Position numbers and translations under genes: made by a program
Assembly: GCF_013167455.1 (NCBI RefSeq)
Contig: NZ_CP038328.1
DNA from: Escherichia coli O157:H7
Lineage (GTDB): Bacteria; Pseudomonadota; Gammaproteobacteria; Enterobacterales; Enterobacteriaceae
DNA: 64,000 nucleotides
Strand: one strand, 5' to 3'
Notes under the pieces: model-generated
Seen by the model: only the letters and a program-made list of their open reading frames with translations
Told to the model about the DNA's origin: nothing
Database searches by the model: none
Shown: positions 49,721 to 57,300 of the stretch, one piece after another
Layout of the letters: the number at the start of each line of letters is the position of its first letter
Numbering within the stretch: position 1 is the first letter of the stretch

Positions 49721-49960
49721 TTAACCATTATCGACCACGATATTGCTTTTGCGTAACAGCGGGCAATCTGTTATCCCCAAAAAACCACTTTTAGTGTGCA
49801 AGTATTGTACCGTGCTGGTGCCTCTGGCAGTCAGATAGGTACATTGCAAACCTAATTCTGCGGCATTCTCTTTGCTTCCAATCAAAACGCCATATCCGCT
49901 GAGTAATAATCCTATCCATACCAGTGCTATCAGCATAACTGTGCGAATGATGAATCGCAT
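49721..49960 (-). CDS. yobH: Small protein YobH (signal/TM peptide)
   Basis: 79-aa ORF. Confidence 0.75.
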   Translation of the reverse strand: MRFIIRTVMLIALVWIGLLLSGYGVLIGSKENAAELGLQCTYLTARGTSTVQYLHTKSGFLGITDCPLLRKSNIVVDNG

Positions 49961-50052
49961 TACAACCTCTTCTCTTTTTTATGTTCGCTTAATCGTAGCG
50001 GCAATATGCGCTGAAGCAAGCGACTCATTCCGAAAAAGCACGAATATCGACA

Positions 50053-50069
50053 TAGTTAGACGCTGTTTA
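50053..50069 (+). promoter_or_regulatory. Candidate PhoP box at the -35 position of the mgrB promoter
   Basis: TAGTTA gacgc TGTTTA: direct repeat with 5-nt spacer, 4/6 and 6/6 matches to the TGTTTA half-site; TTTAAT -10 candidate at 50085..50090. Confidence 0.45.
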
Positions 50070-50119
50070 ACTAACGCATGGTAGTTTAATGACATAAGGT
50101 AGGTGAAACGGAGATTGGA

Positions 50120-50263
50120 GTGAAAAAGTTTCGATGGGTCGTTTTGGTTGTCGTGGTGTTGGCTTGCTTGCTGCTTTGGGCGCAGGTATTCAACATGATG
50201 TGCGATCAGGATGTACAATTTTTCAGCGGAATTTGTGCCATTAACCAGTTTATCCCGTGGTGA
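50120..50263 (+). CDS. mgrB: MgrB, 47-aa membrane peptide (PhoQ feedback inhibitor); below the ORF-track size cutoff
   Basis: GTG start with GGAG SD 6 nt upstream; translation [47 protein letters not shown]. Confidence 0.85.
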
Positions 50264-50337
50264 TATCATTTTTTCAGCACTAGATTTTCTTCCTCTCCAG
50301 CAGTGGTAGAATAGCGCCTCTACTCAGAGGTGGTGAA

Positions 50338-50625
50338 ATGAACGAAGTTGTAAATTCAGGCGTGATGAACATTGCGTCTTTGGTTGTATCGGTGGTGGTT
50401 CTTCTTATCGGGCTCATCTTGTGGTTTTTTATTAATCGTGCCAGTTCTCGGACTAACGAACAGATTGAACTGCTTGAGGCGTTGCTGGATCAGCAAAAAC
50501 GTCAAAATGCACTGTTACGTCGTTTGTGCGAAGCAAACGAACCAGAGAAAGCAGATAAAAAGACTATTGAGAGTCAAAAATCGGTTGAAGACGAAGATAT
50601 TATTCGCCTGGTCGCCGAACGATAA
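50338..50625 (+). CDS. yebO: Small membrane protein YebO
   Basis: 95-aa ORF with N-terminal TM helix. Confidence 0.75.
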   Translation: MNEVVNSGVMNIASLVVSVVVLLIGLILWFFINRASSRTNEQIELLEALLDQQKRQNALLRRLCEANEPEKADKKTIESQKSVEDEDIIRLVAER

Positions 50626-50668: not shown

Positions 50669-51293
50669 AATTCATCCTGATTATACGCACTGTCATGGTG
50701 CAACTGCTTCAAATTAAAACTCTGGTCTGACTTCAAATAATTATCATATTATTTATTTGCGTAACGGGATATCAGAAAAAGATATTTACCCCATTAATTT
50801 ATTAGGATGTTTACATCGGATTTGTGATTAAGCGTGGTATTATTTATTAGCGAAACGTTTCTCTCTTGATTTTTTTTGCTTATTCATCAATTTTTCTTAT
50901 TTTAAATTTCCAATTCCTTTGGGATTGACTTCTCTTTGGGGTGATTGAGAGCCGTTAACTGCCTGTTTTATGAGAAAAAGTGATATAACTTTTTATTCAT
51001 TGCATAGCAGAAAATGTGATATTGCACGCACTATGTAATAACTTCTCCCACTGACCTGGAACAACTGAACTTATTGAACTATGTTAGAAACTACGTCAGT
51101 TTAAGTATCTGCGGAACTGACAAGGTTAAGCACAATGATATATCGGCGCGTATTCCGTTGCATAAGTGTGCAAAAAAAGTGGAAGACGTATCGAGATTTG
51201 TGCGTCTGATCGAGACATGTTTAAAAATGGCTTGCCATAATTAACGTTGTATGTGATAACAGATTTCGGGTTAAACGAGGTACAGTTCTGTTT

Positions 51294-51437
51294 ATGTGTG
51301 GCATTTTCAGTAAAGAAGTCCTGAGTAAACACGTTGACGTTGAATACCGCTTCTCTGCCGAGCCTTATATTGGTGCCTCATGCAGTAATGTGTCAGTTTT
51401 ATCTATGTTATGCCTGCGGGCGAAGAAAACAATCTAA
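51294..51437 (+). CDS. yobF: YobF, 47-aa small protein in the cspC leader; below the ORF-track size cutoff
   Basis: ATG 51294 to TAA 51435..51437; translation [47 protein letters not shown]; 12 nt before cspC. Confidence 0.8.
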
Positions 51438-51449
51438 GGAATTTTTCAA

Positions 51450-51659
51450 ATGGCAAAGATTAAAGGTCAGGTTAAGTGGTTCAACGAGTCTAAAGGTTTT
51501 GGCTTCATTACTCCTGCTGATGGCAGCAAAGACGTGTTCGTACACTTCTCCGCTATCCAGGGTAATGGCTTCAAAACTCTGGCTGAAGGTCAGAACGTTG
51601 AGTTCGAAATTCAGGACGGCCAGAAAGGTCCGGCAGCTGTTAACGTAACAGCTATCTGA
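51450..51659 (+). CDS. cspC: Cold-shock-domain protein CspC
   Basis: 69 aa; RNP1 motif KGFGFI. Confidence 0.95.
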
Positions 51660-51703
51660 TCGAATCCACTGATCTGAAGTGTGAATACGCTTCAATCTCG
51701 CTA

Positions 51704-51732
51704 TAAAGCCTCGTCGAATGCGAGGCTTTTTA
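51704..51732 (+). terminator. Rho-independent terminator after cspC
   Basis: aaagcctcgtcgaatgcgaggcttttt. Confidence 0.75.
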
Positions 51733-51824
51733 CTATGCTTTATCTTCGCTCCTGGCGTTCGGATATTTGCCCGCCGCGTGATTCGCGTTACACTTGCGGC
51801 CTTTAGTATCCTGCCGGAGTTGTC

Positions 51825-53561: not shown

Positions 53562-53620
53562 ATATAGCCTAAGCTATGTCTGATTATTAAAAATACACTA
53601 AACATAGCTTTGGCTAAATT
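53562..53620. promoter_or_regulatory. Two candidate MntR operators upstream of the mntP promoter
   Basis: atatagcctaagctatgt (53562..53579) and aacatagctttggctaaa (53601..53618) resemble the MntR palindrome AACATAGC-N4-GCTATGTT. Confidence 0.55.
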
Positions 53621-56838: not shown

Positions 56839-57300
56839 TTGCTACCTCCTTTATTATCGTTAACACCTCAACGTGCCAGATGTATTTTTGAATCGTCGTC
56901 CACAATCGAATCGATTCAGATAAGGGCTACAACCAAAAACCCCTGCGTTTCGCGATTTATTTTAGATATCGAAAAAATTATTTTATGTGATGAAGATCCG
57001 TAATTTAACTTTCGATTAGCAGAAATTTCGAAAGGTAAAATATCCTTGTCACATTCGTTTGCAAAGGAAGGTAAATCTTTGCCAAATCAGAGGCGTCTCT
57101 GATATGTTTAACTCCCGTTTAACAATCATGGAGTATAGGGCAGTAGCCCGCAGTATGGATCGTCACCGACGTCATTTCAGCATCAGGCCTTTTAACGCCT
57201 GCCTTTCTGGCACTCTATGCCGCACCTTTCGTTTGCATTTTGTCGTTACGCCTGCATTATTTCTGGCGTCGAATAGCTATTCCTTAAGCAGGAGCTTGTC

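Follow-up and report, generated by a model that had tools for sequence, protein, structure and literature searches.

The mgrB gene and its product

The window analysed here, a 64,000-nt stretch of contig NZ_CP038328.1 of Escherichia coli O157:H7 (GCF_013167455.1), carries a short frame at 50120..50263 (+) that starts with GTG, comprises 47 codons and ends with a TGA stop at 50261-63. Almost certainly, this locus comprises mgrB and its PhoP-activated promoter, from an O157:H7-like E. coli. Re-translation of 50120..50263 yielded 47 codons without interruption; neither a frameshift nor a premature stop, set beforehand as the findings that would count against the gene, was present. The product matched Pfam family PF13998 with a score of 66.3 bits against a cut-off of 27 (residues 19-47; profile positions 1-29 of 29) and, over its full length (1-47 of 47), the NCBIfam equivalog NF007635 with 89.9 bits against a cut-off of 40. 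RefSeq places mgrB ('PhoP/PhoQ regulator MgrB') at exactly 50120..50263 in a genome that is 100% identical to the window, and the protein is 100% identical to K-12 b1826. These data bear out the first-pass annotation, which had recognized a GTG-initiated, 47-aa MgrB from the sequence.

Many chromosomes of O157:H7-type E. coli match the 1.1-kb stretch around mgrB with 100% identity, and 5424 of the 5426 complete genomes of E. coli contain it. In the 100%-identical genome, the neighbours of the gene are kdgR, the divergent yobH, yebO, yobF and cspC, the last labelled cspE by PGAP; the arrangement in K-12 is the same. The gene, formerly yobG, has been named, annotated and heavily studied since 1999-2009. 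What lies in the window is this already known gene, correctly re-identified, and no novelty attaches to it. Its absence from the ORF track is due only to the 60-aa cut-off of that track and is not an annotation gap.

To describe the conservation of the locus, one genome per species was scanned, which yielded 80 mgrB loci from ∼25 enterobacterial genera; alignments comprised 81 species-representative loci of the Enterobacteriaceae. The order and strands of kdgR-yobH<>mgrB-yebO were kept in 78-80 of the 80 loci. As expected from the first-pass annotation, which had proposed alignment to MgrB homologues as a check, the ORF was intact throughout the enterobacterial species sample, with 47 or 48 codons in every locus. 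Among 74 distinct 47-codon sequences, variable sites numbered 28, 20 and 43 of 48 at codon positions 1, 2 and 3, respectively. This predominance of third-position variability is a signature of purifying selection on the mgrB frame. Residues K3, W20, Q22, C28, D29, D31, F34, G37, C39 and P46 were invariant in 78/78 47-aa orthologues, and all of the residues required by mutagenesis (K2/K3, W20, F24, C28, D31, F34, G37, C39 and W47) are present in the window peptide.

Many aberrant 'MgrB' entries are also found in public databases; some carry stop-loss extensions at the C terminus, and others have an N or C terminus altered by a frameshift. They have the look of inactivated alleles, not of isoforms, in keeping with the frequent loss of mgrB that is known to occur under antibiotic selection. 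Entries of 58-81 aa were considered as products of alternative starts and rejected: they either extend further upstream, reading through the GTG (Klebsiella aerogenes, Lelliottia), or are alleles with a stop loss or a frameshift. Loss of mgrB makes Klebsiella resistant to colistin and E. coli tolerant to trimethoprim.

MgrB has a basic N terminus (K2, K3 and R5), one transmembrane helix and a short periplasmic tail containing C28 and C39. The best 19-residue hydrophobic window, residues 6-24, had a mean Kyte-Doolittle value of 2.74 and was the sole strongly hydrophobic window, in agreement with the single-TM peptide first proposed. The N-terminal MKKFR lies on the cytoplasmic side, the transmembrane helix spans residues 6-24 and residues 25-47 are periplasmic. 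A sequence search of the PDB found no solved MgrB structure in the copy searched. In K-12, MgrB fractionates with the envelope and is described as an N-in inner-membrane peptide; an N-terminal GFP-MgrB fusion was functional, uncleaved and fluorescent at the cell boundary (PMC2789325). The uncleaved, fluorescent fusion indicates that the N terminus is cytoplasmic and that MgrB is neither secreted nor lipidated.

A competing view of the peptide is that it is a lipoprotein, cleaved and lipidated at C16 within the lipobox-like VLAC. We consider this very unlikely. The L-A-C at residues 14-16 does resemble a lipobox, and the description of the NCBIfam model reads 'regulatory lipoprotein'. However, C16 is replaced in 4 of the 78 47-aa orthologues, by G in three and by F in one, whereas C28 and C39 are invariant. 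Moreover, the C16A substitution was without effect on function (PMC8404706), and in the functional, membrane-localized GFP fusion the N terminus stays in the cytoplasm (PMC2789325). The 'lipoprotein' label of the NCBIfam model is not supported for MgrB.

Promoter and translation start of mgrB

Upstream of the gene, a direct repeat with the sequence TAGTTA-GACGC-TGTTTA occupies 50053..50069 (+), with half-sites at 50053-58 and 50064-69. Compared with the PhoP-box pattern (T/G)GTTTA-N5-(T/G)GTTTA, the downstream half-site is perfect and the upstream half-site has two mismatches (S2-type). The PhoP motif scan suggested by the first-pass annotation was performed as a search of the whole window for this pattern with 1 or 2 mismatches. 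The mgrB box was not recovered at 1 mismatch. At 2 mismatches, it was among 24 matches in the window, for which 14.3 were expected. The scan thus returned the box at the looser setting and did not distinguish it from chance: by motif statistics the box is not significant, and the motif alone is not evidence.

In view of the weak motif statistics, phylogenetic footprinting was used instead. In the 81 loci, the half-sites xxGTTA and xGTTTA were at least 95% conserved and the flanks were mostly not conserved; the conservation of the half-sites between such flanks raises the PhoP box above chance. The box is also the base-for-base counterpart of the direct box of Salmonella yobG/mgrB, ACAGTTACTCCTGGTTTAA, which was footprinted with DNase by PhoP (PMC3335776). 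In addition, PhoP binds the mgrB promoter in EMSA, where the promoter was used as a positive control (PMC8355897). The TAGTTA-N5-TGTTTA repeat that had been proposed as a PhoP box is therefore present, conserved in its half-sites and homologous to a footprinted site.

Conserved islands in the 81 upstream regions comprised the two half-sites, a TG-n-TA-nnn-T element, a CA dinucleotide, GGAG and the start codon region. The combined pattern NNGT[TG]A-N5-NGTTTA-N9-TGnTAnnnT was matched exactly in 67/81 loci. In the window, the second element is the extended −10 sequence TGgTAGTTT at 50079..50087 (+), whose hexamer TAGTTT (50082-50087) begins after a gap of 12 nt from the end of the box at 50069. 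The transcription start was transferred from K-12, in which 5'-RACE-seq placed it at 1906816(-), with a 26-nt 5' UTR and the promoter string ...CATGCTAGTTTAATGACA (PMC3415461 supplementary file 2). The window and K-12 differ by no indel between this start and the start codon, and +1 would therefore be A50094 (+), 7 nt after the −10 hexamer; the CA dinucleotide at +1 was conserved in the 81-locus alignment. Relative to this start, the hexamer lies at −12..−7 and the PhoP box spans −41 to −25, so that it occupies the place of the −35 element (class II activation). The earlier description of the box as being at the −35 position is thus fair.

The same geometry has been described in Salmonella. 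The S1-mapped leader of yobG is 26 nt and its −10, TAATTT, lies 12 nt from the direct box; by the rule for class II PhoP promoters, the box ends 12 nt before a −10 hexamer in promoters without a usable −35 (PMC3335776). Because TGgTAGTTT is conserved together with the box, is the homologue of the S1-assigned Salmonella −10 and fits the position of the K-12 start, the true −10 of mgrB is this extended element and not TTTAAT.

As first drawn, the promoter consisted of TGTTTA as the −35 and TTTAAT (50086-50091), 16 bp further on, as the −10. That spacing is sigma-70-like, and TTTAAT agrees with TATAAT at 4/6 positions. By contrast, the equivalent of the K-12 start, 50094, puts TTTAAT at −8..−3, which contradicts its assignment as the −10: the hexamer exists, yet the call was 4 bases too far downstream. 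Nor is it conserved, as the equivalent positions read CCTGGT in most genera, whereas the TGnTAnnnT four bases upstream is retained. S1 mapping in Salmonella assigned TAATTT, the homologue of TAGTTT, as the −10 at 12 nt from the box (PMC3335776). Finally, a generic sigma-70 consensus scan detected no promoter upstream of mgrB. We therefore regard the promoter as first drawn as highly improbable and retain TGgTAGTTT. Choosing a −10 by its resemblance to TATAAT erred here; for activator-dependent promoters, conservation and mapped starts are a better guide than consensus matching.

The resulting 5' leader is 26 nt (50094..50119, +) and contains the Shine-Dalgarno sequence GGAG at 50110-50113, 6 nt before the GTG start. 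This sequence, which the first-pass annotation had also picked out, was conserved at 85-95% or more in the 81 loci. Ribosome profiling, named there as a further check, has been published: Ribo-RET under low Mg2+ showed a peak of initiating ribosomes at the start of MgrB (PMC11429745). Studies of Klebsiella likewise number mgrB from the GTG start (PMC6054975).

Across the ∼25 genera, the start codon was GTG in 80/81 species, TTG in 1/81 and never ATG. The retention of a non-ATG start amid variable third positions (43/48) may, as a tentative though reasonable reading, reflect purifying selection that keeps either a weak initiation codon or the overlapping GGAGTGA context, in which a conserved (G/T)TG-GAG-TGA mini-frame runs across the start. 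If so, translation of MgrB would be deliberately held low, setting the gain of the PhoQ/PhoP negative-feedback loop. A narrow literature search found no discussion of the universal non-ATG start of mgrB or of a functional reason for it. A mini-frame, TTG-GAG-TGA at 50115-50123, overlaps the mgrB start codon out of frame; most other genera have GTG-GAG-TGA in its place. It may simply be a side effect of the GGAG-rich ribosome-binding region.

Flanking promoters and overlapping frames

A putative second PhoP box, in reverse orientation and not noticed in the first-pass annotation, lies further upstream at 50020..50038 (minus strand: C TTTTTC GGAAT GAGTCG C), in a conserved block at ∼50017-50037. 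It aligns with the reverse box of Salmonella yobG, GTTTTTAGGAATGATTCAC, which was protected by PhoP-P in DNase footprinting (PMC3335776 Table 1). Its core, ATTCC..AAA, was at least 85-95% conserved in the 81 loci. The E. coli half-sites, TTTTTC and GAGTCG, are degenerate and weaker than those of Salmonella. By analogy with Salmonella, we infer that the reverse box is functional in E. coli; the conserved core could also serve another purpose, such as the divergent yobH promoter.

That promoter appears to be TTGCTT-N16-TACGAT (window 49984-50026, minus strand; −10 at 49997-49992). In K-12, the yobH start gives a 24-nt UTR, from only 2 reads, and corresponds to window position 49984 (PMC3415461). 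The −35-like TTGCTT directly adjoins the reverse PhoP box, so that the two divergent promoters interlock closely. Read on the minus strand, the reverse box has CATATT 12 nt after it. The box was considered as a PhoP box of yobH itself, and this was rejected as its main reading: the K-12 yobH start fits TTGCTT-N16-TACGAT, and Salmonella yobH is reported not to be PhoP-regulated (PMC6726612).

Downstream of mgrB, a terminator scan detected no intrinsic terminator after the gene and no terminator-like hairpin in the mgrB-yebO spacer (50264-50337); the predicted fold of 50240-50345 was unremarkable (z = −0.98). The spacer is 74-75 nt in nearly all genera. With no detectable terminator and a spacer of fixed length, read-through from the PhoP-dependent promoter into yebO seems possible. 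Within the spacer, a strongly conserved extended −10 of yebO, TGgTAGAAT (50304-50312), follows the conserved GATTTCCTT. The K-12 yebO start, with a 19-nt UTR, corresponds to window position 50319 and agrees with TGgTAGAAT (PMC3415461).

Several other features of the window were noted. A second PhoP-regulon promoter is found at 57105-57146, where TATAGG stands 12 nt after a near-consensus box, TGTTTA-ACTCC-CGTTTA; a K-12 start maps to the equivalent of 57146, just upstream of yoaL-yoaE (YoaE being a CNNM/CorC-family cation transport protein). In Shigella flexneri, DNase footprinting showed PhoP on a box of identical sequence (PMC5775216). The annotation of the 100%-identical O157 genome gives yoaE as frameshifted. 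A one-mismatch PhoP-box-like repeat, TGTTTAGTGTATTTTTA, occurs at 53588-53604 (-), in the interval that separates the mntP leader region from the 3' end of yobD; chance alone would place about one such match in a window. Finally, the Rfam 'cspA thermoregulator' RF01766 matched 51274-51734, across the yobF-cspC unit, with 136.9 bits. The K-12 yobF start gives a 202-nt leader (PMC3415461), and yobF is reported to be induced by Mg2+ starvation (PMC11429745).

The ORF track shows two longer frames over the mgrB region: one of 70 aa at 49872..50084 (+), which is the 5' end of yobH read antisense plus promoter DNA, and one of 96 aa at 49979..50269 (-), antisense across mgrB. The first-pass annotation had judged both to be probably spurious, and our data agree. 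A Pfam/NCBIfam search of the two frames gave no match, and neither is present in the RefSeq annotation of O157 or K-12. Neither keeps its full length in K-12, where the antisense ORF is reduced to 62 aa by a SNP and the 70-aa ORF to 39 aa by a 1-bp indel in a T-run. In only 32/81 species does the antisense frame stay open across mgrB, and the sites that vary most would be first codon positions in it, a pattern that favours the mgrB frame. Although both frames are open in the window and exceed 60 aa, we thus see practically no chance that either is a real gene, even in addition to mgrB. The case illustrates how a 60-aa cut-off hides real and functionally important small genes while spurious longer frames are shown over the same DNA, and how a small gene can be recovered without tools from the grammar of its promoter, Shine-Dalgarno sequence and ORF.

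PhoQ/PhoP feedback and comparison with known systems

The proposed role of the locus joins the gene identity, coordinates, cis-element conservation and geometry, coding signature and synteny observed here to a start site, Salmonella PhoP footprints, PhoP dependence, membrane topology and PhoQ inhibition drawn from the literature. Low Mg2+, cationic peptides or acid would be sensed by PhoQ, leading to the phosphorylation of PhoP. PhoP-P would bind the direct repeat at 50053-50069; the reverse box at 50020-50038 is probably a further binding site. As the direct box stands in the −35 position, 12 nt before the extended −10, PhoP is predicted to recruit sigma-70 RNA polymerase in class II fashion. 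Transcription would then start at A50094, and translation would proceed from the GTG at 50120 via GGAG. The peptide is expected to bind PhoQ through its transmembrane helix (W20) and to inhibit it in a manner that also depends on K2/K3 and on the periplasmic C28, C39, G37, D31, F34 and W47. This inhibition would close a negative-feedback loop on PhoQ/PhoP.

Several steps of this scheme have been described in K-12. PmgrB, as PmgrB-yfp, is a PhoP-dependent reporter; deletion of mgrB strongly raises PhoP-dependent transcription and over-expression lowers it; and two-hybrid data indicate direct contact between MgrB and PhoQ (PMC2789325). Mutagenesis showed that binding requires the transmembrane helix, in which W20 is the key residue, and that K2/K3, F24, C28, C39, G37, D31, F34 and W47 matter for inhibition (PMC8404706). 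As these results were obtained with the identical K-12 protein (PMC2789325; PMC8404706), the MgrB of the window would likewise be predicted to inhibit PhoQ.

The closest known system is mgrB/mgrBp of K-12, which the window resembles in the box half-sites, the −10 hexamer, the length of the leader, the Shine-Dalgarno sequence, the GTG start and the neighbours kdgR, yobH, yebO, yobF and cspC. The 377-bp intergenic-plus-gene stretch differs from K-12 by three substitutions: A for G at 50060, in the box spacer; G for C at 50081, the n of TGn in the extended −10; and T for C at 50144, a synonymous TTG/CTG change at Leu9. The window also has one extra T in a T-run at ∼49975. None of these differences falls at a conserved promoter position.

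The promoter also resembles that of Salmonella enterica yobG, described as 'architecture II' (Zwir et al. 2012, PMC3335776), in its direct box 12 nt before the −10, its putative second, reverse box upstream, its 26-nt leader and its weak, S2-type upstream half-site, which reads CAGTTA in Salmonella and TAGTTA in the window. The second upstream box is what separates architecture II from architecture I (PMC3335776). The two promoters differ in the reverse box, TTTTTA/GATTCA in Salmonella versus the more degenerate TTTTTC/GAGTCG in E. coli, and in the −10, TAATTT versus TAGTTT. When aligned with that of S. arizonae, the leader region of E. coli is longer by one base.

At the level of the protein, MgrB is comparable to SafA, which acts on PhoQ, and to MzrA, which acts on EnvZ: each is a small bitopic protein of the inner membrane and modulates a histidine kinase. 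However, MgrB inhibits its kinase rather than activating it, and the proteins share no sequence relationship. They also differ in the use of the membrane segment, as MgrB needs its own transmembrane helix (W20) to bind, whereas the segments of SafA and MzrA serve mainly as anchors (PMC8404706).
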